A stretch of DNA of 54,481 nt, from positions 1-54,481 of the forward strand of contig CAYWZO010000005.1 of assembly GCA_964462865.1 (NCBI GenBank). The letters run 5' to 3'. The notes below the pieces were generated by a model. It made no database searches, was not told where the DNA came from, and saw nothing but the letters and a program-made list of their open reading frames with translations. Origin of the DNA: an uncultured Dehalococcoidaceae bacterium. Its GTDB lineage: Bacteria; Chloroflexota; Dehalococcoidia; Dehalococcoidales; RBG-16-60-22. This document shows, one piece after another, positions 3,353-54,481 of this stretch. Positions within the stretch are counted from its first letter, which is position 1. Each line of letters begins with the position of its first letter. Both the position numbers and the translations under genes were made by a program.

Positions 3353-3366
3353 ATTTACATTTCAAT

Positions 3367-4617
3367 TTATAGATTTACTTCTTCGTTCCAGTCCAGCATC
3401 AAGGCCTGGACGGTTTCGCCCTTTCGCACCATTTGCTTTTCCTCGGGGATGAGCACCAGCCCGTTGGCCAGGGACATGGATTTCAGGATGCCCGAGCCCT
3501 GGGGGCCGGTCAACCGGGCGTAATAGTGCCCGTTGCGCCGTGCGATGATAGCCCGGTCGTAGATACGGCGGCCGGCATCGTTTTTAACGTTATCTTCGAT
3601 AATTGCTTCTACCACTGGTTTACCCAGGTTCTTTTTCCCCATCATCTTGAGGAGGGCCGGGCGGACGAACAGCTCGAAGCTCACCATACAGCTGACGGCA
3701 TTGCCAGGCAACCCCAGGTGGGGTATATCTCTCTTTTTGCCTTTAATCTTCCCGAAGGCCAGCGGTTTCCCGGGTTTCACCCGTACTTTCCAGAAGACCA
3801 TCCGGCCTTCCCGGGCCAGAATATCTTTCACCATGTCATAATCGCCCATGGAGACCCCGCCGGTGGTCAGGAGCATATCGGCGTCCTGGGCCTGGCGGAG
3901 CTTGTCCACGATTGATTTGTCCTCGTCACGCGCTATGCCGAGTATTTTGGGGATGCACCCGTAGCGCTTCACCAGCCCGGCGATGCTGTACAGGTTGCTA
4001 TCGTATATCTTCCCCTCGGGAAGGGGCTGGCCCATCTCTACCAGCTCGTTGCCGGTGGAGAGAATGGCGACCACCGGGCGGCGGATGGCTTTGACCCGGT
4101 GATAGCCCAGGGAGGCCATCAGGCCGACCTCGGCGGGGCGGATGACCGTGCCCTTTTTCAGGGCGAATGTCCCTCTGGCAATGTCTTCCCCGGCCTTCCT
4201 GACGTTGAGTTCTGGTGTGGCCTCGGCCAGAATCCCCACCTCGGTGGCGGGACTCTGGCGTTTGGTTTCATCCGTGTTTTCAAACTGGACGACGGCATCG
4301 GCCCCTCGGGGCAGGGGCGCGCCGGTCATAATACGCACAGCCGTACCCGGTTCAACTTCGCGCTTGGAGATAGAGCCGGCCATGACCGTATCGATAACTC
4401 GCAGGACTCTGGGCGAGGCGGCGCTGGCGCCAAGGGTATCCCGGGCGCGAACAGCGTAGCCGTCCATGGCGGAGTTGTCCAGCGGCGGCACGTTAATACC
4501 GGAGGTTATGTCCTCGGCGAGCACCTGCCCCAACGCTTCCAGGATGGGGACGGATTCCGCCTCGAGGACAGTTACTTCATCAAGTATCTTCTCGAGGGCT
4601 TCTTCAACACTTAACAT
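3367..4617 (-). CDS. moeA: Molybdopterin molybdotransferase
   Basis: SAMDGYAV, IMTGAP, STGNEL, TGGVSMGDYD, PGKP, GLPGN motifs. Confidence 0.96.
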   Translation of the reverse strand: MLSVEEALEKILDEVTVLEAESVPILEALGQVLAEDITSGINVPPLDNSAMDGYAVRARDTLGASAASPRVLRVIDTVMAGSISKREVEPGTAVRIMTGAPLPRGADAVVQFENTDETKRQSPATEVGILAEATPELNVRKAGEDIARGTFALKKGTVIRPAEVGLMASLGYHRVKAIRRPVVAILSTGNELVEMGQPLPEGKIYDSNLYSIAGLVKRYGCIPKILGIARDEDKSIVDKLRQAQDADMLLTTGGVSMGDYDMVKDILAREGRMVFWKVRVKPGKPLAFGKIKGKKRDIPHLGLPGNAVSCMVSFELFVRPALLKMMGKKNLGKPVVEAIIEDNVKNDAGRRIYDRAIIARRNGHYYARLTGPQGSGILKSMSLANGLVLIPEEKQMVRKGETVQALMLDWNEEVNL

Positions 4618-5225
4618 CAGTTCGCAGTTCCTCCGGCTATTTTCCTGGCCAGGTCCAGTTCTTCCCTGGTATTGATATTGAAAAAACTCAAATGCTGCGG
4701 GTCGAACCTCTCAACCTCGTCAGTTTCGACATATCTCACTTTAACATAGTTAAAAAGCTCGATGATGACTTTCTTGCCCTGGTTCAGGATGGACTCGATT
4801 GGCGCGATGCAGTTCTTCGAATAGATGGCATGCAGCGGCTCGAAAAGCCTGTTGACCCGCGGTAGGATGAAATCGAATCCATCTGAAATTCCAATCATAT
4901 ATCTCAATAAAGGCTCGTTCACAAATGGCATGTCCGCCGCAACGACAAGGTTATAAAATGAATTCGATTTAACCAATCCGGTATAAATGCCGCCCAGGGA
5001 ACCCTGACCGGGGAAAATGTCTGATACTGTTTTTACTTTCGGGCGGCTCGCCAGTTGTGTGAAGGCTCTCTCTTTCGCTGTTACAATAATAATTTCTTTA
5101 CTTAGCGAGTCAATACGGGAGATGACCTGTTCTAGTAAACTTGTATTGCCAACCTTTTCTAGGATTTTATCGTGACCCAGGCGCGCGCTTTTACCGCCGG
5201 CGAGGATAATAGAAGATGTTTCCAA
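4617..5225 (-). CDS. mobA: Molybdenum cofactor guanylyltransferase
   Basis: ILAGGKSARLGHDK, GSLGGIYTGL, AADMPF, FFNINT motifs. Confidence 0.93.
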   Translation of the reverse strand: METSSIILAGGKSARLGHDKILEKVGNTSLLEQVISRIDSLSKEIIIVTAKERAFTQLASRPKVKTVSDIFPGQGSLGGIYTGLVKSNSFYNLVVAADMPFVNEPLLRYMIGISDGFDFILPRVNRLFEPLHAIYSKNCIAPIESILNQGKKVIIELFNYVKVRYVETDEVERFDPQHLSFFNINTREELDLARKIAGGTAN

Positions 5226-18774: not shown

Positions 18775-18784
18775 AAGCTTTTTT

Positions 18785-24013: not shown

Positions 24014-24140
24014 TGTATCATGCCTTTCTAAAAATGATTTTTTACTGTGGTATTTGTCTTGTTATTTCTCTTGTTCACGGATGTCCCGCTTTTAAAGGTT
24101 GAATCCGTCAATGAACAAGAAGTGAGAAATGAAATTCACT

Positions 24141-24171
24141 ACATCATATACTATATAGAATATGATGTCAA
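24141..24171 (-). promoter_or_regulatory. Near-consensus sigma70 promoter overlapped by a 28-bp palindromic operator
   Basis: Minus strand TTGACA (24171-24166)-17 nt-TATGAT (24148-24143); palindrome ACATCATATACTATATAGAATATGATGT (24141-24168) is 26/28 self-complementary. Confidence 0.8.
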
Positions 24172-24355
24172 TATCGATATTAAATGTTTTTTCATTTTCG
24201 GTGAAGGAAATGGGATACATTAAAGATATAAAGTAAGGAATACTTGAGAATTTGTTGCTGTTTTATAAGAAAGCTGGTTAGTGGCTTAAACGCGCCCGGC
24301 GCTTTGAATCAGATAGTTGCCAGTAAATATCACCGGTCCGGTGTCAGAACTGCGC

Positions 24356-31128: not shown

Positions 31129-32223
31129 GTGGACGATATGTCGCAACGCAAGGCAGCCATGACTGAAGGGCAACGCTTGGCCGCTGTATTAAACCGGGAA
31201 AAGCCAGACAGGGTCCCTAACTGGCCTTTTTTTGATTTAACCGGTTTTTCTGCCGTATACCACCAGCGTCCTGTTGCGGCTGCGTACCTTGACCCCCGGG
31301 AGTCGCTGGATATGCAGCGCGCCGTCTGCCGGGACTTCCAATGGATATGCAGCCCCTTCTTCGCACTCTTTGGTGCTAACGAGTTCGGCGGTGAGGTGAA
31401 ATTACCGGATAGCCAGTATGCGCAGGCCCCGACCATTACCCGTTTCCCTGTGGAAAAGGAAGAAGACGTCCGGAAGCTAAAGATACCGGATATCAAGAAT
31501 TCGCCCAGCGTCGCCAGGGAGATTGAGTTCTATCAAATAGCGTCTAAAGAGCGCTTTGACAACGAGCCGTTCCGGGTTTATCTACCAAGCATCGAACCTT
31601 TTGGCTTTGTTGGCAAGTTATGCCGGCTGGAACTGCTAGCCAGGTGGATGCTCCGGAAACCGGAGATCGTCCTGGAGTTATTGCAGTTCGCTGATAGCTA
31701 TCTAGCAGAGATGATAAAACACTGGCGCGATATCTTCGGCACGGAAGACGTTATCGCCAGGAGCGGCGGTGTAATATCGAGTAACCAGCTAATCTCCCCG
31801 CGACTGTTCGAGCGGTTCGTGTTTCCTTTCCTGAAGGAGAGCCACCGGAAAGTGCTGGAAATGGGCTATCGGCACATCTACTGCCATATCTGTGGTGACC
31901 ATAACATGAATATGAAGTATTGGGCGCAGGTCCCTATGGGGGACCCCGGAATAGTAAGTATCGGCCATGAGGTGGAACTGGAAACGGCAGCGCAATATTT
32001 CCCCGACGACATCATCCTGGGCAACCTGGAGCCATCAATCCTGCAGACGGGCACAGCGGATGAGGTCTATGAAGCCACCAGGAAGGTGGTTGAAAAAGGA
32101 AAAAGGTTGTCTGGTGGCTATATCTTCTCATTGGGTTGCCAGTTTCCTCCGAGGGCTAGCCTGGATAACGCCCGCGCCATGAACCAGGCCATTGAGGATT
32201 ACGGGTGGTACGATAAGGTCTGA
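31129..32223 (+). CDS. UroD-fold methyltransferase (MtaA/CmuA-like)
   Basis: PDRVP, ISPRLFERF, CHICGD, ILGNLEP, LGCQ; start may be ATG 31138. Confidence 0.85.
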   Translation: MDDMSQRKAAMTEGQRLAAVLNREKPDRVPNWPFFDLTGFSAVYHQRPVAAAYLDPRESLDMQRAVCRDFQWICSPFFALFGANEFGGEVKLPDSQYAQAPTITRFPVEKEEDVRKLKIPDIKNSPSVAREIEFYQIASKERFDNEPFRVYLPSIEPFGFVGKLCRLELLARWMLRKPEIVLELLQFADSYLAEMIKHWRDIFGTEDVIARSGGVISSNQLISPRLFERFVFPFLKESHRKVLEMGYRHIYCHICGDHNMNMKYWAQVPMGDPGIVSIGHEVELETAAQYFPDDIILGNLEPSILQTGTADEVYEATRKVVEKGKRLSGGYIFSLGCQFPPRASLDNARAMNQAIEDYGWYDKV

Positions 32224-32236
32224 TTAATGGATAAAG

Positions 32237-32908
32237 GTGGTAAAGAGAATGGCTAGCGAAGCAAGGAAACAAGAACTGATAAAGTCAATTTACCACGCGG
32301 TCATTGACATGGATGAAGCGAAAACACGCAAGCTCTGCCTGGAGGCTCTTGATGAGGGGATTGACGCTTACCATACCGTAACTCATGGGCTAACAGCGGC
32401 GATGGACAGGGTGGGTGTGCTCTACGCCGAAAGAACATATTTTGTCCCGGAGCTTTTGCTGTGCTCGGATGCGCTTTACGCAGGACTGGAGGTGTTACGC
32501 CCGTACCTCAAGATAAACGAACTGGCCACCAGGAGGCAGATTATCATCGGCACCGTTGAAGGCGATATCCATGATATCGGCAAGAACCTGGTGAAGATAA
32601 TGTTCGAGGCCGCCGGCTGGGAGGTGCGCGACTTGGGGAGGGATGTCGCTTTACCAAGATTCCTCGAGGAATATAAAAAGCAACGCGCCGATATCATCGC
32701 CATTTCTGCCCTGATGACGACGAGCATGCTGGCCATGCCCAGAGTAATCAAGATGGTCAGGGCGGAGTACCCGGATGTAGCCATCATGGTTGGCGGCGCT
32801 CCCCTGACCAGGGAGATAGCTACAAGTTATGGAGCCGACGGCTACGCCGAGAATGCCGGGACAGCCGTGCCCGAAGCGCAAACGATGCTGGCAAGGCTGG
32901 GTAAATGA
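32237..32908 (+). CDS. Corrinoid (B12-binding) protein
   Basis: GTVEGDIHDIGKNLV (DxHxxG), SALMTT, MVGGAP, GADGY; N-terminal cap domain. Confidence 0.93.
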   Translation: MVKRMASEARKQELIKSIYHAVIDMDEAKTRKLCLEALDEGIDAYHTVTHGLTAAMDRVGVLYAERTYFVPELLLCSDALYAGLEVLRPYLKINELATRRQIIIGTVEGDIHDIGKNLVKIMFEAAGWEVRDLGRDVALPRFLEEYKKQRADIIAISALMTTSMLAMPRVIKMVRAEYPDVAIMVGGAPLTREIATSYGADGYAENAGTAVPEAQTMLARLGK

Positions 32909-33963
32909 AACGGGATAAAATGACACCGAAGGAAAGGTTGACAGCCTTCAGGAAGGGAGAAGCGACAGACCGCGTACCGTTTTTGTCTTTCACCCTCGGT
33001 TTTTGCGCCAGGAATGTCGGCTATCCGGTATCGGCCATCTACGCCGACCCGGAGAAAAGCTTTCGCGCGCAGCTGCGGACCAGGGAGCAGTACGGCTGTG
33101 ACAGCGAGCCTTTTTTTGGTTACGCCTCTTACGGGGGCTGGGAGTTCGGTGGAGAAATTGAGCTACCCGACGGGGAATACGAACAGGCACCATCCCACGG
33201 ACGGTTCGCCGTTAATGACGCGACGGATGTAGAGAAGCTTCAAAGGCCCGACGTGGCAACGGCGGGCATGCTGCCACTGGCGATGCAATTCTCACGGATA
33301 CAGGAAAAAAACGGCATCGGGCCCTCGGTAGTCGTCGGCGGGCCTTTAACTATCTCGGCAAATATCTGCCCGGTAGCCACACTATGCCGATGGATGGTAA
33401 AAAAGCCAGAGCTGGTGCAAAGACTCCTTCGGCTGGCTACCGATCATATCCTGGATATCGCACGCTACTGGATAAAGAGCTTCGGCAGGGGCCGGGTAGG
33501 AATGCAGATATGGGAGCCGGTGGCAACAAATGACCTCATTTCCCCCAAGCAATTCGAAAATCTGGTATTACCTTATCAGGTTGAACTACATGAAAAGCTA
33601 TTGAAAATGGGCATCCTCTATATTCTCTGCCATATCTGCGGGGAACAGATATTAAACCTTCCCGCCTGGGCAAGCGTACCGATGGATAATGGCATCGTCA
33701 GCGTCGGTCAAGAAATCGATATAGATACGGCGATAAAATACTTTGGGGACAGGTGTGCTATTGCCGGTAATATTGAGCCGGCGTTACTTCAGACCGGGAC
33801 GCCCGATGAAATCTGCGAACTCTGCCGGAGGGCCATCGAAAAGGGAAAGCGTGCCCCGCACGGCTATGCCCTGATGCCAGGGTGCGAAGTGCCGGTGAAT
33901 ACCCCGCCCGATAACCTTTACGCGATGAAAAAGGCTGTTAGCGAATTTGGCTGGTATGAATAA
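32905..33963 (+). CDS. UroD-fold methyltransferase (MtaA/CmuA-like)
   Basis: MTPKERL...DRVP, ISPKQFE, CHICGE, IAGNIEP, PGCEV; start overlaps the corrinoid gene stop. Confidence 0.87.
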   Translation: MKRDKMTPKERLTAFRKGEATDRVPFLSFTLGFCARNVGYPVSAIYADPEKSFRAQLRTREQYGCDSEPFFGYASYGGWEFGGEIELPDGEYEQAPSHGRFAVNDATDVEKLQRPDVATAGMLPLAMQFSRIQEKNGIGPSVVVGGPLTISANICPVATLCRWMVKKPELVQRLLRLATDHILDIARYWIKSFGRGRVGMQIWEPVATNDLISPKQFENLVLPYQVELHEKLLKMGILYILCHICGEQILNLPAWASVPMDNGIVSVGQEIDIDTAIKYFGDRCAIAGNIEPALLQTGTPDEICELCRRAIEKGKRAPHGYALMPGCEVPVNTPPDNLYAMKKAVSEFGWYE

Positions 33964-34086: not shown

Positions 34087-34647
34087 TCATGATAATTTTT
34101 CTACCCGTTTCAAGATAATGAGCGCAGGTCGGGTCGGCCCGGGATATCGCTCTGATATCTTCCCCTTTGCCGTTTCAATGGGTGCGTTGATATCACCAAA
34201 CCTAAGGGCCCCGGTCGGGCAGTGGACAGCGCAAAAAGGTTCCGAACCGAGTCCGGTACAATAATCGCATTTCTGCATCTTACCATCCTGCCCGAATTGT
34301 GGCATACCGTAAGGGCAGGCGGTGAAGCACTCTTTACAGCCGTTGCATTTTTCATCGTCGACCAGCACCAGTCCGTCTTCAGATCGTTTATAGATGGCTC
34401 CGGTAGGACAGATACTCATACACGCCGGCTCGGCACAATGCATGCAGGATATCGACAAAAAAGTCCTTTTTACCTCGGGAAACTCACCTTGCCATGCTTC
34501 CTGGGTCTTTCGCCAGTAGAGTCCGGCTTCAATGTTACGCGCACTTTTGCAGGCTGCCTCACAGGTACGACAGCGGACACACCTGCTCTGGTCATAAATA
34601 AAACCTAGTTGGACCGGCATATCTTCAATCATGTTGGAATTATTCAT
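34087..34647 (-). CDS. 4Fe-4S dicluster electron-transfer subunit (DmsB-like)
   Basis: CVRCRTC, CMHCAEPAC, CNGCKECFTACP, KCDYC...CAVHCP; start overlaps the Mo-enzyme stop. Confidence 0.92.
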   Translation of the reverse strand: MNNSNMIEDMPVQLGFIYDQSRCVRCRTCEAACKSARNIEAGLYWRKTQEAWQGEFPEVKRTFLSISCMHCAEPACMSICPTGAIYKRSEDGLVLVDDEKCNGCKECFTACPYGMPQFGQDGKMQKCDYCTGLGSEPFCAVHCPTGALRFGDINAPIETAKGKISERYPGPTRPALIILKRVEKLS

Positions 34648-36821
34648 GCGGATAGTTTCATGACCTCAACAAGAGTCTGTTTTGGCATCGCCGTAACGAC
34701 CGGGTCAAATGCCTTTTCAGGGTCAGTGGTGTACAGCAAGTTCGTATTAGCGCCTCCATCGAGTAGATCATAACCCGACAATCCGAGTTCATCACAACCC
34801 TGCCACCAGCCGTGAAGACCCATAACAACTTTAGGGTTTATACCGGGGAATAGTACTGCCTTGGCCTTAATCCGGCCATGGGGAGACTCTACGGTAGTCC
34901 AATCGCCGTTTTCAATACCACGTTCTTTAGCCGTATCGGGATGTATGTATATCCAGGGGTCCGGCTCCAACTCACGCAGCAGGGGGATATTACGCAACCA
35001 GCCGTGATTATATACATCAGATGTGTGAGTATCGAAAAAAACGAGGGGATATTTTGTCAGGAGTTCGGGCGTGCTGGATGGTCCTTCCGGAGGGGCTGTC
35101 CATTCAGGTAGTGGATTAAACCCGTTTTCCTCAAAACCTGTATTAAATATAGCGACTTTACCCTGCGGGAGATAAGGGGCTTTAGAAAGCCGGGGACTGG
35201 GAGTGGCGAATGTCTTTTCATATTTCTCAAAGACCATCGGTCCCGGTTCGTAGATGATTCCGGTGGGGTATTTTCTCAATTCCTCCATTGTCATGCCGAA
35301 GTTTTCCAGCTGGTAATTCATGCACGCTATTATGTCGCCGTTCCAGAAGTCATCCCCGTAACCCATCTTTATGGCGAGGTCGAGCCAGAATTGAAAGTCA
35401 GATTTATAATTTCCCAGGGGCTCGATAACCTTATTTCTGGCCATTATCCAGTTCTTGGTAACCTCAAAGGGATGGTCGCATTCATACATACTGGTAACAG
35501 GAATGACAACGTCTGCCCATGGCATTGATGCGTTCTCCATAACGTCGATGACTACAAAGAAATCAAGTTTTTTCAGGGCTTCGATGACTCTCGGGGTCCC
35601 GCGGGTGATTACGGTGGGTTGAGTTCCAGGAGCGATGATTGTTTTCACAGGGTACGGCTTTTCGGTGAGGACACTGTCAAGACAACGGAAATAGGCGGAA
35701 GAGGTGCCTTCGGTGAATGGCTGGAAACAACTTGCTATCTCCGGGCCGACAAGATTGTCTACCCACTGTTGAGTATATTTTTCCCGGATGTGGACAGGTT
35801 TTAGTACTGGCATGGTTCCCGGAACGGGAATAACGTTTCCGCCAGGCCTATCGAGATTGCCGGTGATGGCGATCAACGTCGCGATGGCACGTACAGCATT
35901 GTTTGAATTTACCGTCTGATCAAAGGCATTGCCAACCCGGATACAGGCTGATTTTGCACTGCCGTACATCCGGCTTACTTCACGTATCCGGGCTGCCGGA
36001 ATTCCGGTTATGGGAGCGGCCCATTCCGGGGTATACTTCTGGACATGGCTTTTAAGTTGATCAAAACCATAACACCACTTGGTTACAAAATTTTTATCAT
36101 ATAGTTCCTCGGTAATAATGACGTTTAACATCGCCAGGGCCAAAGCCGCATCCGTTCCCGGTATAACCGGAATCCAGACATCCGCCTTGGCGGCGTCTGG
36201 CTGTAGCGCGGGTTTGATTACGATCAATTTGGCACCCTGCTCCCGGGCATTCAAAATTCGGTAGAAATCTCCTCGTGGAGTTCCGGAGTAAGCGGGGTTT
36301 GCTCCCCAAATGATGATCAAGTCAGTATTATCATAATCTTCTGTGAGCCGTGGCGCGCCCAGGGTATAGGCAAATCCGAAGGCGCGCTGGATCGCGCAGA
36401 TACCGCTATGGCCATAGTTTGGACTTCCATGTACCATGAGGAACCGGTAAAGATAATCGCTGTAGGTTCGCCTCTGGGGGGAAAGAATTGCCAGAGTTTT
36501 CGGTCCATATATTTCCTTCTGTTCGAGAAGCTTCCCAGAAATGATATCGATAGCTTCGTCCCAATCAATTCTCTTGAATTTTCCTTTCCCTTTTTCACCT
36601 GCCCTCTTTAATGGGTACCTCAATCGCTGTGGAGAATATAACCATTGGGCTGATGCAAATGCCTTGGCGCACAGTTTCCCTCGATTGATGGGAGATTCCT
36701 TCATTCCTTCGATTCTAACGAGTCTTCCATCCTTAACATAACAATTAATGCCACACCCCGCACTGGGACCGCATAGCGAACAAAATGTCCGTATTAATTG
36801 TTCTTTAGAATTTGATTTCAT
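34644..36821 (-). CDS. Mo/W-bisPGD oxidoreductase with N-terminal 4Fe-4S, probably Cys-ligated
   Basis: CSLC...GC...LCAK cluster motif, GSPNYGHSGIC, WGANP, PGTDAA, ITGNLDRPGG; no Tat signal. Confidence 0.9.
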   Translation of the reverse strand: MKSNSKEQLIRTFCSLCGPSAGCGINCYVKDGRLVRIEGMKESPINRGKLCAKAFASAQWLYSPQRLRYPLKRAGEKGKGKFKRIDWDEAIDIISGKLLEQKEIYGPKTLAILSPQRRTYSDYLYRFLMVHGSPNYGHSGICAIQRAFGFAYTLGAPRLTEDYDNTDLIIIWGANPAYSGTPRGDFYRILNAREQGAKLIVIKPALQPDAAKADVWIPVIPGTDAALALAMLNVIITEELYDKNFVTKWCYGFDQLKSHVQKYTPEWAAPITGIPAARIREVSRMYGSAKSACIRVGNAFDQTVNSNNAVRAIATLIAITGNLDRPGGNVIPVPGTMPVLKPVHIREKYTQQWVDNLVGPEIASCFQPFTEGTSSAYFRCLDSVLTEKPYPVKTIIAPGTQPTVITRGTPRVIEALKKLDFFVVIDVMENASMPWADVVIPVTSMYECDHPFEVTKNWIMARNKVIEPLGNYKSDFQFWLDLAIKMGYGDDFWNGDIIACMNYQLENFGMTMEELRKYPTGIIYEPGPMVFEKYEKTFATPSPRLSKAPYLPQGKVAIFNTGFEENGFNPLPEWTAPPEGPSSTPELLTKYPLVFFDTHTSDVYNHGWLRNIPLLRELEPDPWIYIHPDTAKERGIENGDWTTVESPHGRIKAKAVLFPGINPKVVMGLHGWWQGCDELGLSGYDLLDGGANTNLLYTTDPEKAFDPVVTAMPKQTLVEVMKLSA

Positions 36822-46085: not shown

Positions 46086-47099
46086 TTAATAACCCCTCTT
46101 CCGGCTTATCACGTTTATCAGTTTTTTCCCTGTAAGGTAGCGTTTGAGGTTTTCGCAGAATAAGGCCGTGGCGTGCATCAGATAGTTATCCTGGTTCCCG
46201 GAGACATGAGGGGTGAGAACGATGTTATCGAAGTCCCAGAGGCGACTGGTGGGAGGGAGGGGCTCGACGACGGTGACGTCCAGGCCGGCCCCGGCGATCC
46301 ATTTTTCTTCGAGGGCTCTAATCAGAGCATCTTCATTGATAATGCCGCCCCGGCTGATATTTATCAGGTAGGCAGTCCTCTTCATTGCCTGCAACTCTTT
46401 TTCTCCAATCAGCTTGCTGGTCTTGGGTGTGAGGGGCACGCAGGATACCACGAAATCGCTCTCGGCGAGCAATTGGTTTAGCTGACTTACCGGCAGCATC
46501 TTATCTACGTTCCTGACGGGTCTTATCCCCCTGATCTCATCTACGGCCAGCACCCTCATACCGAAGGCCTTGGCCAGGCGCGCTACTTCCCGCCCGATAT
46601 GCCCCAGCGCAATGATGCCCACGGTGCTGCCGTGAAGCAGCCGCGGCGTGAATCTTTGCCACTGTCGTTTTTGCTTCATCCGGAAGCTCTGCGCCGTATC
46701 TTTGGCGAAGAAGAGCATCGTCCCGATGACGTACTCGCTGATGGGCGTAGCGTGGATGCCGCTGACCCCGGTGATGATTACCCGGCTCTGCCAGATTTCG
46801 CTCCGGGCTATGCCGTCGGCCCCGGCGGACATCAGTTGCACCCATTTCAGATTGGGTGCCCGTTTCAGGAGGTCGTGGGGCGGGGCAAACCCCACGATTA
46901 TTTCAGTCTTGGCCAGCAGCGCGTCCAGTTTCTTTGTAGATTCCACCTCGCCCCGCAGTTCGGCGGCCACCAGGCCGGAGGCGTCCGTGACCCTGACGGA
47001 CGGGTCGACCTGTCTTATCTTCTCCAGAAGCCTATCGTCTATCCGCGGAGTAGCCACACGGACCGGGGAAATAACGACAATTATATTCAACGTTTTCAT
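46086..47099 (-). CDS. D-2-hydroxyacid dehydrogenase
   Basis: LKWVQLMSAGAD, ALGHIG, PLTPKT, NISRG, GAGLDV..EPL, TPHVSG. Confidence 0.93.
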   Translation of the reverse strand: MKTLNIIVVISPVRVATPRIDDRLLEKIRQVDPSVRVTDASGLVAAELRGEVESTKKLDALLAKTEIIVGFAPPHDLLKRAPNLKWVQLMSAGADGIARSEIWQSRVIITGVSGIHATPISEYVIGTMLFFAKDTAQSFRMKQKRQWQRFTPRLLHGSTVGIIALGHIGREVARLAKAFGMRVLAVDEIRGIRPVRNVDKMLPVSQLNQLLAESDFVVSCVPLTPKTSKLIGEKELQAMKRTAYLINISRGGIINEDALIRALEEKWIAGAGLDVTVVEPLPPTSRLWDFDNIVLTPHVSGNQDNYLMHATALFCENLKRYLTGKKLINVISRKRGY

Positions 47100-47130
47100 A
47101 GGGGTGCCTCTCCTTTTTCAGCCCCGGCGT

Positions 47131-47922
47131 TTATTTACCCAGCACAATACCGGCCGGGTCTATCTCCTGGCGCAATAGCCGCAAATCTTCGGGGGCCGGC
47201 TCGGGGCTTCTTTCAATCTGGTCAGGGATGATAATATCGAAACTGCTGTTCTCCCTGACTTCATCCAGGCTGGCGCCGGGATGCAGTGATAGAAGTTTTA
47301 GCTTTTTCGTTTTCTCATCGAAACTATAGACCCCCAGCTGGGTGATTACCCGGTACGGCCCGGAACCACGGGGCAGTCCGGCCCTTTCCCGGCTACCCGG
47401 CCCATCCAGATAGCCGGGGGTGGTCAGGAAATCAACCTTGTCCACAAAAGTCCTTTTCGACTGGTTGGCGATGATAATGATGAGCCTCTGGGAGAAAGAG
47501 CCGGCATCATTGGCACCGCCGCTGCCGGGCAGGCGTACCGTCGGCAGGTCATGGTCACCGATAACGGTGGTATTGATGTTTCCGTAAACGTCTATCTGGG
47601 CGGCCCCCAGAAAGCCGTAATCGGCGTAGCCTGCCTGGGAGAGCGACATCACGTCGTGCATGGTCGAGGCGCAGACGCCCTTGTAAAAAGTCCGGGACTC
47701 GCCTACTGATATGGGCAGTTCGGGTAACAGGGGCCCAATGCCGCCGGCTTCAAATAATATCAACAGACGGGGTGCGTGTGTCTTCTGGGCCAGCATGGAC
47801 GCAATGATAGGCAGCCCGGTACCTACGAAGACGGACTTTTCATCTTCCAGAACGCCGGCCCCGAGGAATGCCAGGTACTCCCTTAAATTATAAGTATTTT
47901 CTACTGAACCTTTTTTTGCCAT
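47131..47922 (-). CDS. Family I CoA-transferase beta subunit (GctB-like)
   Basis: VFVGTGLP, LFEAG catalytic Glu, GAAQIDVYGNINTT, LPGSGGAND, VITQLG. Confidence 0.9.
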   Translation of the reverse strand: MAKKGSVENTYNLREYLAFLGAGVLEDEKSVFVGTGLPIIASMLAQKTHAPRLLILFEAGGIGPLLPELPISVGESRTFYKGVCASTMHDVMSLSQAGYADYGFLGAAQIDVYGNINTTVIGDHDLPTVRLPGSGGANDAGSFSQRLIIIIANQSKRTFVDKVDFLTTPGYLDGPGSRERAGLPRGSGPYRVITQLGVYSFDEKTKKLKLLSLHPGASLDEVRENSSFDIIIPDQIERSPEPAPEDLRLLRQEIDPAGIVLGK

Positions 47923-47946
47923 GAGTTACAACCCCTTTCTGATGGT

Positions 47947-48966
47947 CTAAGCCGTTTTCCGCCACGGTGCCGTCATCGGTTCCCGTAGAAACTCCCGTTT
48001 CTTCAGATAGTTCAGCTTCCTGATGCCGCCGCAAAGCTGTAAATATTCTTCGAAGTCCGCGACGCCGAAAACATATTTGTCCAGGTACTCGGCGATACCC
48101 TCATCCGTCTTGGAAAGATCCAGCCACTTGGCGATATGTTCCTCGTCATAGTAATACATCACGGGCATCTCGCAGGGGTGAGAGCCGAAGGGGACTTCGA
48201 CCACCGCGTCCACGACGAAAAACGGAATGACCGTCTTCCAGGGCTCTCTCCGGATGACTTCATTATCCACTATCTGTTCGGTTGTGATTATCAGGCGCCG
48301 CGCGCATCTCGCCAGTTCGAAGTCTTCGACCAGCGTACCATCCACCTGGGCGTTACCGTACATATCGCAGCGGTGGACATGGATGAAGGCGATGTCCGGG
48401 TAGGCCGCCGGAATGATATTGACCGGTTTGCCGGTGAACGGATCCTGGATGACTTTGCAGGAGCTGTATTTAATGGTATCGGTCCCGAGCATATTGCGGC
48501 CGGGTACAAAGGATAGCCCCATCATCGCGGCCAGCCATCGCCACTGGTAGCCGGCGTTTGAGGTCTCGGCCACTACTTTGCACCGGCCCGTTTGCACCAT
48601 CCGGCGCGAGGCCGGGGACAGGCCCCGGAGTTCATGGCCGAAGGAATACGCGGCCTCGACCCGGTTGACGCAGCCCGAACCCACCAGGATATCCAGGTCG
48701 TGGACCGCCGTCTTCCCGGCCAGTATCAGATTCTTCTTTTTCTGCCGGATTATTTCGTAGACGATGGCCATTGATATTCTGACGTGCCCGAAGCCACCGC
48801 TGGCCGTGAAATCGCCGTCATGAACGAATTTGGCCACGGCCTCCGCGGCCGACATCGTCTTGTCCTTCAAGGCGCGGGACTTATTTTTCATGACCCATTC
48901 GCGGGCATCATCAGGGTCATGCCAGCCAACTAACTCACCCTGGCCTTCGTACAGGATATCCGTCAT
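47947..48966 (-). CDS. Family I CoA-transferase alpha subunit (GctA-like)
   Basis: KTMSAAEAV, PDIAFIHVHRCDMYGNAQ, VDAVVEVPFGSHP. Confidence 0.9.
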   Translation of the reverse strand: MTDILYEGQGELVGWHDPDDAREWVMKNKSRALKDKTMSAAEAVAKFVHDGDFTASGGFGHVRISMAIVYEIIRQKKKNLILAGKTAVHDLDILVGSGCVNRVEAAYSFGHELRGLSPASRRMVQTGRCKVVAETSNAGYQWRWLAAMMGLSFVPGRNMLGTDTIKYSSCKVIQDPFTGKPVNIIPAAYPDIAFIHVHRCDMYGNAQVDGTLVEDFELARCARRLIITTEQIVDNEVIRREPWKTVIPFFVVDAVVEVPFGSHPCEMPVMYYYDEEHIAKWLDLSKTDEGIAEYLDKYVFGVADFEEYLQLCGGIRKLNYLKKREFLREPMTAPWRKTA

Positions 48967-49380: not shown

Positions 49381-51972
49381 ATGCCGGAAAAAGAAAGAAC
49401 GGTGGTGAAAGGACTCTCCGGGGCAGGTGTCACCGAAGATTCCAACTGCGTCCAGGTCGACATCAGGGACGGGAAAATCATCAGAATCAGGCCTTTTCAC
49501 TTCAACTGGAAATACGACCGCAAGCCCTGGAAGATAAAGGCCCGCGGCCAGGTCTTTGAAGCCAGCATGAAGACGTTGATACCCCCCTTTACCCTGGCCT
49601 ACAAGAACCGCGTCCATTCCCCCAACCGCACCCTCTACCCCCTCAAGCGCGTTGACTGGGACCCCAGCGGCGAGCGCAACCCGCAGAACCGCGGCCAGAG
49701 CAGGTACGTGCGTATTTCCTGGGATGAGGCCACCAGCATTATCGCCGGTGAAATTAAAAGGATCCAGAAAAAATACGGCCATACGGCCATTCTCCTGCAG
49801 GCGGACGGACACGGAGAGACCAAGGTGGTGCACGCCGCCCACGGCTGCAGCCGCAGGCTGCTTTCGCTGATGGGCGGTTACACCTGGCAGACCCGCAACT
49901 CGGACAGCTGGGAAGGCTGGTACTGGGGTGCCAAGCATGTCTGGGGCTGCGAGCCGGTTGGCAAGGCGGCCTACCAGTCTAATATTGTCCCGGATATCGC
50001 CGAGCATACCAATATGCTGCTTTTTATCGGCTGTGACCCGGAGACCACCACCTGGGGCTGGGGCGGGCAGACGGTCAGCCGCCTGTGCTACTGGTTCTCC
50101 GACCTGGGCATCAAGCAGGTCTATGTCTGCCCGGACCTGAACTACGGCGCCGCCGTCCACGCCGATAAGTGGATTCCGATACTGCCCAACACCGATGCCG
50201 CCCTGTACCTGGCCATCGCCTATCTCTGGCTGACACAGGGTACCTATGATAAAGAATACGTCAAGACCCACGTCGTCGGCTTTGAAAAGTTCGAGGCCTA
50301 TGTTCTGGGGGAAGAAGACGGCGTACCCAAGACGCCCACCTGGGCCTCGGCAAAAACCGGCGTACCCACGCGGATTATCAAGGCCCTAGCTAAAGCCTGG
50401 GCTGCCGGAGCGACCACCACCGTGCATGCTAATGGCGGTAACCTGGCCCGGGCGCCTTACTGCACGGAGAACATGCGCCTCGAGGTGTGCCTGCTGGGCA
50501 TGCAGGGCCTGGGTAAACCGGGGCGCCACATGTTCACCACCATCGAGTGGGGCCTCTTCGGCAATATGGACCCGCCGGAGTGGACCTTCGGCAAGACGAT
50601 CCCGGTCCCGCGCCATATGGTCTATCCCAACCTGGTGCCGGCCAACCGCGGCTTCGCCGTGGTGGGTGACGACCTGCCAGCCCAGATTATCTCCAAGGTG
50701 ATGATTACCGAGGCCCTGAATAATCCCCCCATTTCCTGGTACGGCACCACGCTCTGCCGCCAGCTCACGGAAAACCAGTTCGTGCAATACAAATATCCGG
50801 TGGACGGTTGCTCCGAGATTCACATGATTTGGACGGACACGCCGGCCCTGATGACCTGCTGGAACGATTCTAATTATACCGCCAAAGGCTACCGGAACCC
50901 CAAGATTGAATTCATGCTGGCGCAGCACCCCTGGATAGAAAACGACTGTCAGTTCGCCGATATTATCCTGCCGGTGACCACCAAGTTCGAGATTGATGAC
51001 ATCGGTATTGATAACTTTACCGCCGAGTTCGGCACCCTCTATCTCGACCAGAAATGCATCGAGCCCCGCGGCGAGTCACGCAGCGATTATGAGGTGGTCT
51101 GCGCCATTGCCGAGAAACTGGGCCTGCTGGAAGAATACACCGGCGGTAAGACTATCGACGAATGGATTAAACACGGCTTCGATAACTGCGGCGTCAAGCA
51201 CCTGGTATCCTGGGAAGAGTTCAAAGAGAAGGGCCACTTCGTCATCCCCAACGACCCGGACTGGGAGAAGTACGATATCGGCTTGAGAAAATTCGCCGAA
51301 GACCCGGAGAACAACCCCATTTCCACGCCGACCGGTAAGCTGGAATACTATTCACAGCGGCTGGCTGACCACTTCCCGGACGATAAGGAAAGGCCGCCCC
51401 TCCCCCGCTGGATTGAGCGGGGCGAGAGCCACGACGAGCGGCTCTCCGGCGACCGGGCGAAAAAATATCCCTTCCTCTGCTGCTCCAACCACCCCCGCTG
51501 GCGCGTCCACTCCCAGCACGACGATATGCAGTGGCTCCGGGAAATCCCCACCTGCAAGATAAAGGGGCCGGACGGCTACGCCTACCAGACGATGTGGATT
51601 AACCCCGCCGATGCCGCTAGAAAAGGCATTAAGACCGGCGATGTCGTCAAAGTGTTTAACGACAGGGGAGGCGTGCTCCTCGGCGCCTATGTCAACGAAA
51701 GGATTAGGCCCGGCGTTATCTACGTCGACCACGGCGCCAGGTACGACCCCATCGTTCCGGGCGAGCTGGACAGGGGCGGGGCCATCAACACCATTACCCC
51801 CCGTAAGACTGTCTCGAAGAACGCTACCGGCATGGTCTCCGGCGGTTTCCTGCTGGACGTGGAGCGCGTTAACCTGGACGAAATGCAAAGGCAGTACCCG
51901 GAGGCTTTCAACCGGCCTTATCATCGCGGTTCCGGCCTGACACTGGAAAGAATGTTCGCTGAAAAACAGTGA
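49381..51972 (+). CDS. Mo/W-bisPGD oxidoreductase, AthL-like clade
   Basis: NSDSWEGW, PNTDAA, ADIILP, TPTGKLEYYS, HSQ; clear paralog of 28443..31118; no Tat signal. Confidence 0.9.
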   Translation: MPEKERTVVKGLSGAGVTEDSNCVQVDIRDGKIIRIRPFHFNWKYDRKPWKIKARGQVFEASMKTLIPPFTLAYKNRVHSPNRTLYPLKRVDWDPSGERNPQNRGQSRYVRISWDEATSIIAGEIKRIQKKYGHTAILLQADGHGETKVVHAAHGCSRRLLSLMGGYTWQTRNSDSWEGWYWGAKHVWGCEPVGKAAYQSNIVPDIAEHTNMLLFIGCDPETTTWGWGGQTVSRLCYWFSDLGIKQVYVCPDLNYGAAVHADKWIPILPNTDAALYLAIAYLWLTQGTYDKEYVKTHVVGFEKFEAYVLGEEDGVPKTPTWASAKTGVPTRIIKALAKAWAAGATTTVHANGGNLARAPYCTENMRLEVCLLGMQGLGKPGRHMFTTIEWGLFGNMDPPEWTFGKTIPVPRHMVYPNLVPANRGFAVVGDDLPAQIISKVMITEALNNPPISWYGTTLCRQLTENQFVQYKYPVDGCSEIHMIWTDTPALMTCWNDSNYTAKGYRNPKIEFMLAQHPWIENDCQFADIILPVTTKFEIDDIGIDNFTAEFGTLYLDQKCIEPRGESRSDYEVVCAIAEKLGLLEEYTGGKTIDEWIKHGFDNCGVKHLVSWEEFKEKGHFVIPNDPDWEKYDIGLRKFAEDPENNPISTPTGKLEYYSQRLADHFPDDKERPPLPRWIERGESHDERLSGDRAKKYPFLCCSNHPRWRVHSQHDDMQWLREIPTCKIKGPDGYAYQTMWINPADAARKGIKTGDVVKVFNDRGGVLLGAYVNERIRPGVIYVDHGARYDPIVPGELDRGGAINTITPRKTVSKNATGMVSGGFLLDVERVNLDEMQRQYPEAFNRPYHRGSGLTLERMFAEKQ

Positions 51973-52038
51973 TTTTCAGGTAATCGGTATATCGTAAAAA
52001 AAGAGACCAAAAAGTATAATTATCTGGGAGGAGAGCAA

Positions 52039-54481
52039 ATGCCGGAACAGGTTTTTATACAGTGCACGGTCGGCGGCCCCGTCAAGGTATACGTTAAAGA
52101 TGGTAAAATAACCAAGATGCGCCCTATAATCTTTGATGATAAGACGGACGCGCCGTCCTGGGTCATCAACGCCCGGGGACGCAAATTCACCCCGCCCCGT
52201 AAGACCACCCTCCAGACCTATGAAGTCCCGGAGAGGACCCGGGTCTACGCCGAGAACCGGATTAAATACCCGCTCCGGCGTAAGCATTTCGACCCCAAAG
52301 GCGAGCGCCATCCGGAGCTGCGTGGCAAGGACGAGTATGTCCGCATCTCCTGGGACGAGGCGCTGGACATCGTCGCCGGTGAAATCAAGCGTATCCGGCA
52401 GACCTACGGCCCGGCGGCCATCACGGCCATGACCTCCTCCCATCATAACTGGGGCTTCCTCCATTATAAACTCGGCCCGCTGGGGCGCTTCTTCAATATC
52501 CTGGGCTATACCTGCCTGTTCGATAACCCGGACAGCTGGGAAGGCTGGCAGTGGGGGGCAGTGCATACCTGGGGTTTCTGGTGGCGGCTGGGGCACTGCG
52601 AGCAGTCCGAGCTTTTGCAGGACGCCCTGAAGCATACCGAGCAGATTATCTTCTGGTCGGTCGACCCCAACAGCACCTCCTATATGTACAGCGGCCAGGA
52701 CAATCTGATATGGCGTATCTGGATGAAGGAACTGGGCATCAGGTTCGTGGTCATCGACCCCTATTGCAACTGCACCGCCAGTACCATGGGCGATAAATGG
52801 CTGGCCCCCCGCCCCGGTACGGACGCCGCTCTGGCAGAGGCCATCGGCTACGTGTGGATTAAAGAGGGGACTTACGATAAGTTCTTCGTCGAGAACCGCA
52901 CCTACGGCTTCGAGGAATGGAATAAGCATATTCTGGGCGAGACCGACGGCACGCCGAAGACGCCGGAATGGGCCGCCAGAATCTGCGACATCCCCGCCCA
53001 TGACATTAAGGCGCTGGCCCGGGAATGGGCGGCGAAAAAGACCATGCTGGCGGTGGGGAGTATCTTCGGCGCGACGGGCGCCTGCCGCGAGGCCTATGCC
53101 ACCGAGTGGGCGCGCCTGTGCGTCCTGCTCATGGCGATGCAGGGCTTCGGTAAGCCCGGCGTGAACTTCTGGGGCGGTACCGGCGGGGCGGCCCCGGTAG
53201 ATTATAGATTTAATATGCCGGGCTACTCCGAGAACGGCTGGGACGCCTTTGGCATCGTCGCCGATAAATCGTATTTCCCGGAGGGGAACAGTGTCACGCA
53301 GAAAGCCTACCGCCTGCTCCTGCCGGAAATCGTCATGAACCCGCCGGTAAGCTGGATAGGGGAGGGTTTCTGCGGCAACTCCGTCGAGCAGCAGTTCCAG
53401 CGTTTTACCTGTCCCGAGCCCGGCCCCAACGGCGCGCCCATCAAAATGATATACCGCCATGGCGGCTCATTCATCAGCACCATGACGGAGACCAACCGCT
53501 GGGTGCGCATGTACCAGCACCCCAACCTGGAGTTCGTGGTGATGCAGGACTGCCACTGGCAGAGCGAGACCAGGTTCGGCGACATCATCCTGCCCGCCTC
53601 CACCAACTTCGAGCACACCGACCTCTCCGAGTGGAACAGCGCCGGCGGCTACGGCTGCAATGATATGAACAACAACCACCGCGTTATCATCTACCAGCAA
53701 CAGTGCATCGAGCCGTTGTGGGAGTCCAAGCCGGACTACGAGATTTATACCCTGCTGGCGGACCGGCTCGGCTTCAAGGACAAGTATACCGAGGGCAACT
53801 CCTTTGAGGACTGGAACAAGAAGGTCTTCGAGTACTCCGATTTGCCCAAGTACGTTAAGTACGAAGACTTTAAAAAGAAGGGCTACTTCGTGGTGCCTTC
53901 CATGCCGCCCGACGCCGAGCCGCTGGTGTCCTTCCGCTGGTTCTACGAAGGGCGGCCCTGCGACCTGTACTCCGAGCCCAAGAATCCCTTCATCGGCACC
54001 GAGCGGGCGCACCTGCTGGGCACCCCCAGCGGCAAGGTCGAGTTCGTCTCCCAGACACTTCAGAAATTTGACCCCGATGATAAAGAAAGACCTCCGATGC
54101 CCCGCTACATCCCCTCCTGGGAAGGTTACAATACGAAGAAACTCACGAAAAAATACCCGCTGCAGCTGGTAAGCCCGCACCCCCGTTTCTCCTACCATAC
54201 GCATAACGACAACAAGAGCTACTGGCTGGATGATATCCCGCAGCACCGCGTTAGGAAAGACGGCTACACCTGGTGGCCGGTGCGCATCCATCCGGTGGAT
54301 GCGGACAAACGGGATATACATGATGGCGATATCGTCAAGGTCTATAACGGCCGCGGCGCGGTGCTCTGCGCCGCCCACGTGACCGAGCGCATCCGGCCGG
54401 GGACGGTGCACTCTTACGAGGCCGGGGCCAAGTACGACCCGCTGGAGCCGGGCAAGCCGGGCAGCATCGATAAAGGCGGCT
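52039..54481 (+). CDS. Pyrogallol transhydroxylase large subunit (AthL)-like Mo enzyme, 3' end beyond window
   Basis: Hand translation from ATG 52039 (GGAGGAG RBS): MPEQVFIQCTVGGPVKVYVKDGKI...TSSHHNWG...NPDSWEGWQWG...PGTDAA...PGYSE...SPHPRFSYH...IDKGG. The frame stays open to the window end; absent from the track because there is no stop. Confidence 0.92.
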   Translation, partial: MPEQVFIQCTVGGPVKVYVKDGKITKMRPIIFDDKTDAPSWVINARGRKFTPPRKTTLQTYEVPERTRVYAENRIKYPLRRKHFDPKGERHPELRGKDEYVRISWDEALDIVAGEIKRIRQTYGPAAITAMTSSHHNWGFLHYKLGPLGRFFNILGYTCLFDNPDSWEGWQWGAVHTWGFWWRLGHCEQSELLQDALKHTEQIIFWSVDPNSTSYMYSGQDNLIWRIWMKELGIRFVVIDPYCNCTASTMGDKWLAPRPGTDAALAEAIGYVWIKEGTYDKFFVENRTYGFEEWNKHILGETDGTPKTPEWAARICDIPAHDIKALAREWAAKKTMLAVGSIFGATGACREAYATEWARLCVLLMAMQGFGKPGVNFWGGTGGAAPVDYRFNMPGYSENGWDAFGIVADKSYFPEGNSVTQKAYRLLLPEIVMNPPVSWIGEGFCGNSVEQQFQRFTCPEPGPNGAPIKMIYRHGGSFISTMTETNRWVRMYQHPNLEFVVMQDCHWQSETRFGDIILPASTNFEHTDLSEWNSAGGYGCNDMNNNHRVIIYQQQCIEPLWESKPDYEIYTLLADRLGFKDKYTEGNSFEDWNKKVFEYSDLPKYVKYEDFKKKGYFVVPSMPPDAEPLVSFRWFYEGRPCDLYSEPKNPFIGTERAHLLGTPSGKVEFVSQTLQKFDPDDKERPPMPRYIPSWEGYNTKKLTKKYPLQLVSPHPRFSYHTHNDNKSYWLDDIPQHRVRKDGYTWWPVRIHPVDADKRDIHDGDIVKVYNGRGAVLCAAHVTERIRPGTVHSYEAGAKYDPLEPGKPGSIDKGG

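Follow-up and report, generated by a model that had tools for sequence, protein, structure and literature searches.

Tannins, flavonoids and lignin-derived phenols are broken down anaerobically via trihydroxybenzenes. To our knowledge, detailed study has been limited to a single transhydroxylase, and both the purpose of the transhydroxylase iron–sulfur subunit and the source of the co-substrate remain unclear. In AthL, the large subunit of the Pelobacter acidigallici system AthL/AthS (also PgtL/BthL; PDB 4v4c), we take Ser175 to be the molybdenum ligand and Tyr404, within a P-G-Y loop, to be the catalytic residue on the co-substrate side. Catalytic roles of His144, Asp174 and Tyr404 were reportedly described by Messerschmidt et al. 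in 2004. Two further systems, RhLS of Aromatoleum anaerobium and DbhLS of Thauera aromatica AR-1, belong to the same Ser-ligated RhL/PgtL family and are likewise two-subunit (L-S) cytoplasmic enzymes with phenolic substrates (PMC10100899); they differ in being enzymes of nitrate reducers whose hydroxylation uses water and an electron acceptor, and they are compared here by description only. AthLS copies have also been reported from organisms of the kind studied here, namely Chloroflexi RBG-2 and RBG-1351 and Dehalococcoidia DEH-C11, where the multiple copies were read as a sign of plant polyphenol use (PMC3971608, PMC4959651). In the available parts of those papers the copies are treated as pyrogallol hydroxytransferases, with no distinction of subtypes or of the gene arrangement described below.

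We analysed a 54,481-nucleotide stretch of DNA from an uncultured Dehalococcoidaceae bacterium (contig CAYWZO010000005.1), hereafter the window, which encodes three AthL-like proteins. These share with AthL the fold, a domain 1 free of FeS clusters, the DSWEGW Mo-ligand motif, His144 and a predicted cytoplasmic location. The type III enzymes of the DMSO reductase family (DorA, TorA, BisC and MtsZ) also resemble the window proteins in fold (TM 0.78–0.81), in the Ser ligand of Mo and in having an FeS-free catalytic subunit, but they carry Tyr before the Ser ligand, lack an AthS partner, give much lower bit scores and fall in a separate clade.

RESULTS

Three AthL-like genes, one of them open at the window end

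A preliminary description of this DNA had counted three AthL-like genes, one of them hidden from the open reading frame (ORF) track, and long reading frames were indeed present at 28443–31118, 49381–51972 and 52039–54481. The gene at 49381..51972 (+ strand), here called L', encodes a QxDGH-type AthL-like Mo-bisMGD large subunit of 863 aa with no Tat signal. It is followed after a 66-nt spacer by L (52039..54481, + strand), the gene of an AthL-type large subunit, of which 814 of ~846 codons lie in the window and which is open at the window end; full-length homologues of its product (92% identity) are 846 aa long. The ATG start of L at 52039 is preceded by the ribosome-binding site GGGAGGAG at 52026–52033, 5 nt before the ATG. 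L was the hidden gene, unlisted because its reading frame runs off the window end and such ORFs are omitted; the list shows antisense shadow ORFs (51976–53460 and 53467–54411) where it lies. The remaining gene (28443..31118, + strand) encodes a second QxDGH-type AthL-like large subunit of 891 aa, 54% identical to the 49381 protein by BLASTP, and has no adjoining AthS-like gene.

An AthS-like gene in an overlapping contig completes the L'-L-S unit

The preliminary description predicted an AthS-like FeS gene beyond the end of the contig. While a search for the exact sequence of the 49381 protein matched no contig, a DNA pattern search led to a metagenome contig, L007, that overlaps the window end by 197 bases with 1 mismatch (99.5% identical). 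This contig supplies the missing 32 codons of L and then, 4 nt downstream, the expected AthS-like gene, which is thus observed in a near-identical contig and beyond the window's own DNA. Its 276-aa product resembles the AthL/AthS small subunit in having 12 Cys residues and, at the C-terminus, a beta-barrel domain; it matches AthS (4v4c_B) at E 9e-63 and is predicted to carry three FeS clusters. A further gene comes after it in L007, with a product that begins MAQKGKSK. The same L-S pair was found in locus L003, and the order L' then L, seen in the window, recurs in six other loci (L001, L010, L018, L021, L024 and L069). Identities to the window pair across loci were 85/89, 61/66, 61/60 and 56/49% for L'/L, the two genes diverging in step. 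Judged by sequence, L' and L (49381–54481) open a three-gene operon, L'-L-S, that recurs in Dehalococcoidales.

An AthS-like gene of their own lies directly downstream of 42 of the 86 QxDGH genes, and 33 of the 86 have no adjoining AthS. The 28443 gene resembles the latter and differs in this from AthL/AthS, since no AthS-like gene was found near it within the window. A redox role of the FeS clusters therefore cannot hold for all clade members.

The window proteins group with AthL

For comparison with AthL we used residues 10–870 as rebuilt from PDB alignments (4v4c_A), with the length and key residues checked. With 47% identity, the 52039 protein is the closest of the three to AthL, which is its best match in the PDB search (836 bits, E 1.9e-250; DMSO reductase 297 bits), and AthL is also the best PDB match of the 49381 protein (484 bits, E 5.4e-144, 35% identical; DMSO reductase 262 bits). 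The 28443 protein matched the rebuilt AthL by BLASTP at E 3.8e-133 with 34% identity. The Pfam domains PF00384, PF01568 and PF21423 (AhtL-like domain 1) are present in all three proteins, PF21423 in the 28443 protein scoring 25.7 bits, just under its cutoff of 27. The best NCBIfam match for each of the three was bisC_fam (TIGR00509), with 344–370 bits against a cutoff of 1017.55, or about one third. An AF2 model of the 49381 protein (pLDDT 89.8) had 4v4c_A as its top Foldseek match (E 4e-82, TM 0.84). Preceding the Ser ligand, the three window proteins and AthL have Asp, and the S-/N-oxide reductase-like outgroup has Tyr.

A neighbour-joining phylogeny separated the AthL core, the Dehalococcoidales AthL-type and the QxDGH clade together from this outgroup with 99% bootstrap, with values of 100, 100 and 96 for the three groups themselves. 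The PDB scores, the sub-cutoff BisC match, the bootstrap and the Foldseek result thus bear out the earlier claim that the proteins are related to AthL and do not group with S-/N-oxide reductases, and we place all three with AthL, apart from the ordinary reductases. A strict clade of AthL core plus Dehalococcoidales AthL-type was recovered in 0 of 100 bootstraps, because SHHW-type proteins of 987–997 aa nest between them. The AthL core, the Dehalococcoidales AthL-type and the SHHW-type would therefore form one SHHW/PGY signature group whose status as a clade is unproven. Relatives closer to AthL than the 52039 protein (62–63% identity) occur in Actinomycetes MAGs.

The first 80 residues of each window protein contain at most one Cys, and neither a twin-arginine signal nor an N-terminal FeS cysteine motif was found in any of the three. 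Domain 1 thus lacks an FeS cysteine motif, and the proteins are predicted to be cytoplasmic, as had been proposed.

Two active-site subtypes

DSWEGW occurs in each of the three proteins (at residues 175, 165 and 197). The motifs SSHH (133), PGY (394) and IFGATG (342) are restricted, among the three, to the 52039 protein, in which the SSHH, PGY and GF motifs of the preliminary description were all present. Alignment to the rebuilt AthL showed that this protein keeps His144, Tyr152, Asp174, Ser175, Tyr404 and Tyr560 (AthL numbering), including the four residues (His144, Asp174, Ser175 and Tyr404) named earlier as retained. It accordingly retains every AthL residue taken here to be catalytic. Its pocket nevertheless differs, also as described before: AthL GGLGGWGG becomes GSIFGATG, which results in W354A, and Cys557 is replaced by Ala (C557A), together with R153K.

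The 49381 and 28443 proteins share QADGH (at 140 and 162) and have no PGY, in agreement with the preliminary description. The QADGH histidine lines up with AthL His144 and does not vary across the QxDGH clade, so that the motif exchanges only the neighbours and the catalytic histidine stays. The QxDGH type keeps the His144 equivalent, Asp174 and Ser175 and is without Tyr152, Arg153 and Trp354. The Tyr404 and 554–560 loops are missing or unalignable in both proteins, the alignment being gapped around Tyr404 such that a structurally equivalent residue may exist in the QxDGH type. As Tyr404 is not found in them, we file the two proteins as a sister subtype and not as AthL orthologues.

In ~120 homologues of each type, H144, D174, S175 and W176 were 100% conserved in both; Y152, Y404 and Y560 were 100% conserved in the AthL type only, and Glu146, Lys148, His154 and His351 were 93–100% conserved in the QxDGH type only. 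Among 68 diverse homologues, His144, Asp174, the Mo-ligand Ser and ~175 other columns were invariant. The proposed division into two active-site subtypes therefore stands, each being conserved in its own homologues, but the difference is not at His144, which both have in common. Instead, the QxDGH type has lost the Tyr404 and 554–560 loops together with Tyr152, Arg153 and Trp354, and has gained Glu146, Lys148, His154 and His351. The QxDGH proteins form a sister clade to the AthL type (96% bootstrap) and are predicted to have a rebuilt pocket. Neither a description of the QxDGH subtype nor its reaction was found in the searchable literature, and the active-site split, with RhL/DbhL compared by description only, appears to be new.

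Family size and spread

The QxDGH clade has thousands of database members, which come from sediment Chloroflexota, Actinomycetota, Desulfobacterota, Firmicutes, gut Eggerthellaceae and archaea and for which 'TMAO reductase' or 'S/N-oxide reductase-like' is the usual annotation. The cluster members of 10 intermediate representatives included no RhL names, only generic names and archaeal origins. With many relatives and many paralogues per genome, the family is large and as diversified as the preliminary description supposed. The multi-copy expansion of AthLS itself is not new, since two papers already report two or three copies per genome in sediment Chloroflexi and Dehalococcoidia (PMC3971608, PMC4959651).

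DISCUSSION

We consider it probable that the L'-L-S unit encodes two cytoplasmic, Ser-ligated bis-MGD large subunits of the AthL/PgtL family, L being transhydroxylase-like and L' belonging to a QxDGH sister clade with a different second half-reaction. The operon's single small subunit, AthS-like and with three [4Fe-4S] clusters, would be encoded just past the window end. L would most likely bind a polyhydroxybenzene at Mo via a phenolic oxygen and move a hydroxyl between two phenols, as AthL does, the altered pocket (R153K, W354A and C557A) implying a different substrate or co-substrate range. The QxDGH clade keeps the Mo-ligand serine and a presumed Asp/His acid–base pair, with the co-substrate tyrosine loop of AthL gone. 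Its enzymes, too, may hold a phenol or a comparable hydroxylated compound at Mo; for their second half-reaction, hydroxyl transfer from a different donor is conceivable, as is redox hydroxylation or dehydroxylation with electrons passing via the AthS clusters. The substrates and chemistry of both subclades are our inference, and so is hydroxyl transfer by the QADGH type.

It is conceivable, if not what we expect, that the QxDGH clade is a functionally new Mo-bisMGD class acting on hydroxylated aromatics, and that in the L'-L-S unit L' works with the transhydroxylase and the AthS clusters are truly redox. L' might then make or recycle the tetrahydroxybenzene co-substrate, or it might run a further step of a sequential transhydroxylation pathway, for example from hydroxyhydroquinone to pyrogallol to phloroglucinol. 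The clade would not be uncharacterised if its members were anaerobic water-dependent hydroxylases of the known RhL/DbhL kind, passing electrons via the AthS-like clusters to an acceptor. RhL and PgtL have been assigned to a common Ser-ligated family (PMC10100899). Half of the QxDGH genes come with an FeS subunit of their own, for which a redox hydroxylase has an obvious use, and an enzyme independent of a phenolic hydroxyl donor could well do without the co-substrate tyrosine. We nevertheless regard this reading as rather unlikely: among the best 80 of at least 596 relatives there was no locus from Aromatoleum or Thauera, so that RhL can only be a distant member at best; most hosts are fermenters or sediment anaerobes, where it is not obvious what high-potential acceptor would serve phenol hydroxylation; and many clade members lack an adjoining FeS subunit. 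It is improbable that the QxDGH type consists of reductive dehydroxylases of phenolics, similar to the gut catechol dehydroxylases and evolved independently in the AthL lineage. Homologues of 52–53% identity with their own FeS subunit do occur in gut Eggerthellaceae, Raoultibacter and Adlercreutzia, taxa noted for dehydroxylating polyphenols (PMC7028382), and exported Tat-bearing relatives exist; the known catechol dehydroxylases, however, form a separate clade near acetylene hydratase, and the window proteins are predicted to be cytoplasmic and have no conserved electron-donor module adjoining.

It is very improbable that we are dealing in all three cases with ordinary S-/N-oxide reductases of the cytoplasm (BisC, DorA or TorA kind). 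The JGI names of homologues ('S/N-oxide reductase-like' or 'TMAO reductase'), the best NCBIfam match and a DMSO reductase fold that is nearly as near (TM 0.80) would fit such enzymes, but the bisC_fam match reaches only about a third of the cutoff, AthL beats DMSO reductase by 484 to 262 and 836 to 297 bits, the Ser ligand follows an Asp, shared with AthL, where the outgroup has Tyr, the outgroup splits off at 99% bootstrap, and BisC, DorA and TorA have no partner of the AthS-like kind. AthL has a sulfoxide-dependent side activity, so some S-oxide chemistry may persist. L' could also be thought a catalytically dead paralogue that serves L and S as a structural or assembly partner, given that it lies directly upstream of L-S and that the three-gene unit has one FeS subunit gene. 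We give this hardly any credence, as the Mo-ligand Ser, Asp174, His144 and ~175 more columns are invariant in the 68 diverse homologues and the majority of the clade either comes with an S subunit of its own or stands alone.

The rebuilt QxDGH active site points to unexplored Mo chemistry on polyphenols. The labels 'pyrogallol hydroxytransferase' and 'TMAO reductase' in metagenomes are probably wrong for most QxDGH genes, and the residue signature offers a simple rule for sorting such genes and for choosing candidates for assay.

Genomic surroundings

When neighbouring ORFs were clustered across 88 loci, no conserved gene was found besides the AthS-like subunit, so the context assigns no pathway or substrate. 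Divergent from and upstream of L' are genes for a D-2-hydroxyacid dehydrogenase and two CoA-transferase subunits (46086..48966, − strand; Pfam, NCBIfam). We rejected a phloroglucinol-pathway reading of these genes, their neighbourhood not being conserved in relatives, and within the window neither a phloroglucinol reductase nor a ring-cleavage gene was recognised.

Directly downstream of the 28443 gene, 31129..33963 (+ strand) encodes an MtaA/CmuA-like methyltransferase, a corrinoid protein and a second MtaA/CmuA-like methyltransferase (Pfam URO-D and B12-binding; NCBIfam matches all below cutoffs), a set that resembles an O-demethylase module. As in the window, URO-D genes lie near the 79% homologue in L088. 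Close homologues of 28443 mostly stand alone; their contexts range from another L-S pair with URO-D genes in one to oxidative-stress genes in a second and Hdr-like genes in a third. Since these contexts vary, the tie to O-demethylase-like genes is suggestive only.

A fourth Mo enzyme, acetylene hydratase/polysulfide reductase-like by Pfam and PDB matches (2e7z 266 bits, 2vpw 264 bits) and with an Fe4S4 domain, is encoded together with its 4Fe-4S subunit at 34087..36821 (− strand), in the neighbourhood of the 28443 gene. Genes for synthesis of the bis-MGD molybdenum cofactor are located at 2705..5225 (− strand) and encode MobB (PF03205), MoeA (PF03453, PF00994 and PF03454) and MobA (PF12804).

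Three transhydroxylase-like genes of the AthL lineage

The window contains three genes for proteins resembling AthL, the large subunit of pyrogallol-phloroglucinol transhydroxylase from Pelobacter acidigallici (PDB 4v4c, chain A; the small subunit AthS is chain B). Two were present in the ORF listing, L' (49381–51972, + strand, 863 aa) and the gene at 28443–31118 (+ strand, 891 aa), and both encode the motif QADGH. The third, L, was read by in-frame translation of 52039–54480 (+ strand), which gave 814 codons without a stop and a frame still open at the window end; its ATG lies 66 nt past the stop of the preceding gene and 5 nt past GGGAGGAG. No forward ORF was listed past 51972, and antisense shadow ORFs (51976–53460 and 53467–54411) were listed over L. 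The preliminary description was right that this gene is hidden from the ORF track, and the sole cause is that the lister omitted ORFs running off the window. The motifs it had named were all found in the respective genes. AthL residues 10–870, reassembled from PDB alignments with length and key residues verified, bore out the proposed residue equivalences, among them W354A in the change of GGLGGWGG to GSIFGATG and Ala in place of Cys557 (AthL numbering is used throughout).

Pfam domains PF00384, PF01568 and the AhtL-like domain 1 PF21423 were detected in all three proteins. A PDB search returned AthL as the top solved relative of both the 52039 protein (836 bits, versus 297 bits for Rhodobacter DMSO reductase) and the 49381 protein (484 versus 262 bits), and the 28443 protein matched the rebuilt AthL with E 3.8e-133 in BLASTP. 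Identity to AthL was 47% (52039), 35% (49381) and 34% (28443), the latter two proteins being 54% identical to each other (BLAST). The top NCBIfam match for the three was bisC_fam (344–370 bits, curated cutoff 1017); no AthL-specific NCBIfam model was returned for them. The AlphaFold2 model of the 49381 protein was of high confidence (pLDDT 89.8, pTM 0.91) and closest among PDB structures to AthL (E 4e-82, TM 0.84); DMSO and TMAO reductases ranked lower (E about 2e-64, TM 0.78–0.81).

A neighbor-joining tree of 169 full-length relatives, taken from GTDB genome loci, metagenome contigs and 50%-identity cluster representatives, resolved three groups: an outgroup with Tyr preceding the Ser ligand, as in S/N-oxide reductases; a group with the signature SHHW...DSW...PGY, including P. 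acidigallici AthL (AthL type); and a large group with Q-x-D-G-H-G, including both QADGH proteins (QxDGH type). Bootstrapping of an 81-taxon subset supported both the AthL core and the Dehalococcoidales AthL-type subclade containing the 52039 protein at 100, the QxDGH clade at 96 and all of these together versus the outgroup at 99. A grouping with ordinary S-/N-oxide reductases was thus not found, and the analysis shows the three proteins to be serine-ligated bis-MGD enzymes of the AthL lineage. Neither a twin-arginine motif nor an N-terminal FeS cysteine cluster was found in any of the three, which are cytoplasmic.

Two versions of the active site

For each window protein, a set of about 120 homologues was aligned to AthL. 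H144, D174, S175, W176, E177, G178 and R359 were 100% conserved in all three sets, and the QADGH histidine is therefore the His144 equivalent. Y152, Y404 and Y560 were 100% conserved in the AthL type only; in this set, that of 52039, position 153 was Lys (98%) and position 354 Ala, Thr or Val. The QxDGH sets had lost the Tyr404 loop and residues 554–560 and had invariant or near-invariant residues of their own (D142, G143, E146, K148, H154 and H351). The two subtypes proposed earlier held as two conserved versions across about 120 homologues each, but the QADGH type keeps His144 itself. The difference sits around the His144 equivalent and towards the co-substrate face of the pocket, which the subtype-specific positions probably line, since in sequence they lie close to key residues of the AthL structure.

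By analogy with AthL, we lean slightly towards L transferring hydroxyl groups between polyhydroxybenzenes with altered specificity. L' and the 28443 protein would bind a hydroxylated, probably aromatic substrate at Mo, with the same Asp/His pair as AthL, and would differ from AthL in the second half-reaction. Our tentative preference for this step is transhydroxylation with another donor or isomer, followed by water-dependent hydroxylation of the kind carried out by resorcinol hydroxylase (large subunit RhL) and then by reductive dehydroxylation, each of them individually doubtful.

The small subunit and the L'-L-S operon

No AthS-like gene was found within the window, the sole match being an unrelated FeS subunit (34087–34647). 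Searching with the window's terminal 43 bases as a pattern matched one metagenome contig, L007 (Ga0315548_1091193, 1224 bp), whose 197-base overlap with the window end contains one mismatch. On this contig the AthL-type gene stops 32 codons beyond the window end and, as anticipated, an AthS-like gene (S) follows, starting 4 nt downstream; its 276-aa product matches AthS over the full length (E 9e-63) with 12 cysteines in the AthS pattern. The same L-S pair occurs in L003, a Dehalococcoidales-like MAG with an 86% homologue. These pairs show AthL-lineage enzymes partnered with a three-cluster FeS subunit. A further gene begins 70 nt past S (L007 1–24, − strand); its eight visible codons, MAQKGKSK, resemble N-termini of QxDGH-type genes. 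In locus L006 (2672–3820) a QAEGH-type AthL-like gene follows a homologue 92% identical to the 52039 protein. Another paralogue may therefore lie further along the window's own locus.

The order L' (QxDGH) then L (AthL type) was observed in the window and in loci L001, L010, L018, L021, L024 and L069, with S following wherever the sequence extends far enough. Because identities to the window's L'/L fall in step across such loci (85/89, 61/66, 61/60 and 56/49%), the two sequences fit inheritance as a unit. Over all loci, 42 of the 86 QxDGH genes with room downstream had their own AthS-like gene directly downstream; the others were followed by an AthL-type gene (7), another QxDGH gene (4) or something else (33). 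Apart from AthS-like and AthL-like genes, no conserved neighbours were found across the loci compared. Most close homologues of 28443 have no S gene beside them, and their surroundings vary.

Distribution and relation to published work

Among the database candidates scored, each window protein had more than 5000 relatives at E ≤ 1e-30, the closest named ones being from Dehalococcoidales MAGs (85–89%), which makes this order the probable origin of the window. The QxDGH type occurs in Dehalococcoidales, Anaerolineales, many Actinomycetota MAGs, Desulfospira, Desulfatiglandales, Syntrophorhabdales, Peptococcaceae, Sporomusa acidovorans, Spirochaetes and the gut Eggerthellaceae Raoultibacter and Adlercreutzia; Nitrososphaeria archaea have a relative at 55%. 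Of the 57 full-length representatives of 50% clusters that are related to the 49381 protein (among P0243–P0308), 38 have twin-arginine N-termini such as SRRDFLVGAG and SRRSMLKWTG. Several of these retain His144 and D-S-W, so the AthL lineage also includes proteins that are exported or anchored in the membrane, some of archaeal origin.

The diversified family of the preliminary description is borne out by several copies at some loci: at least two AthL-like genes lie within about 22 kb in 13 of 80 GTDB loci, and at least three in five, with a maximum of five. The expansion of AthLS-like genes is, however, already known, since passages in reports of 2013 and 2016 describe multiple copies in sediment Chloroflexi and Dehalococcoidia, read as pyrogallol use (PMC3971608, PMC4959651). 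A 2023 survey placed all such proteins in one 'RhL/PgtL' family (PMC10100899). In the literature searched we found no description of the split between AthL-type and QxDGH-type active sites, of the clade-specific invariant residues or of the recurrent L'-L-S operon. Should RhL and the large subunit of 3,5-dihydroxybenzoate hydroxylase (DbhL) prove to be QxDGH-type, this subtype would be an already known kind.

Arrays of 3–5 AthL-like genes interleaved with AthS-like genes over about 20 kb were seen in L041, L018, L010, L069 and L030, hosted by Actinomycetes and Dehalococcoidales MAGs. Locus L002 has several fragmented AthL-like copies, probably frameshift errors of long-read assembly.

Other genes of the window

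Genes for MobB, MoeA and MobA, for bis-MGD cofactor synthesis (2705–5225, − strand), share the window with four Mo enzymes. The fourth Mo enzyme, a 725-aa protein with an Fe4S4 domain, and its 4Fe-4S subunit (34087–36821, − strand) have acetylene hydratase and polysulfide reductase as top solved relatives, in the branch to which gut catechol dehydroxylases also belong. Directly downstream of 28443 lie genes for an MtaA/CmuA-like methyltransferase, a corrinoid protein and a second MtaA/CmuA-like methyltransferase (31129–33963, + strand), all scoring under the NCBIfam cutoffs; together they resemble the O-demethylase systems of acetogens. The fourth Mo enzyme adjoins the corrinoid methyltransferase genes and 28443, an arrangement suggestive of a catabolic island for methoxy- and hydroxy-aromatics. 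In locus L088, URO-D genes are also found close to a homologue of 28443 with 79% identity. The cofactor, corrinoid methyltransferase and acetylene hydratase-like genes are weak but consistent support for the proposed functions. In locus L089 (3263–9677), HdrA-, FlpD- and HdrBC-like genes precede a homologue with 74% identity to the 28443 protein, which hints at a flavin-based electron-transfer module linked to 28443-type genes in some genomes.

A glycyl radical enzyme (24356–26749, − strand) matched no NCBIfam equivalog (TIGR01774, 620 bits, cutoff 678). Its region (11322–26749, − strand) also encodes two family III CoA-transferases, two BcrAD/BadFG-type ATPases, two HGD-D dehydratase-like subunits and a peptide-type ABC transporter. 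The gene at 9075–10496 (+ strand) encodes a 473-aa protein of the serpin family, uncommon in bacteria, with an N-terminal hydrophobic stretch.
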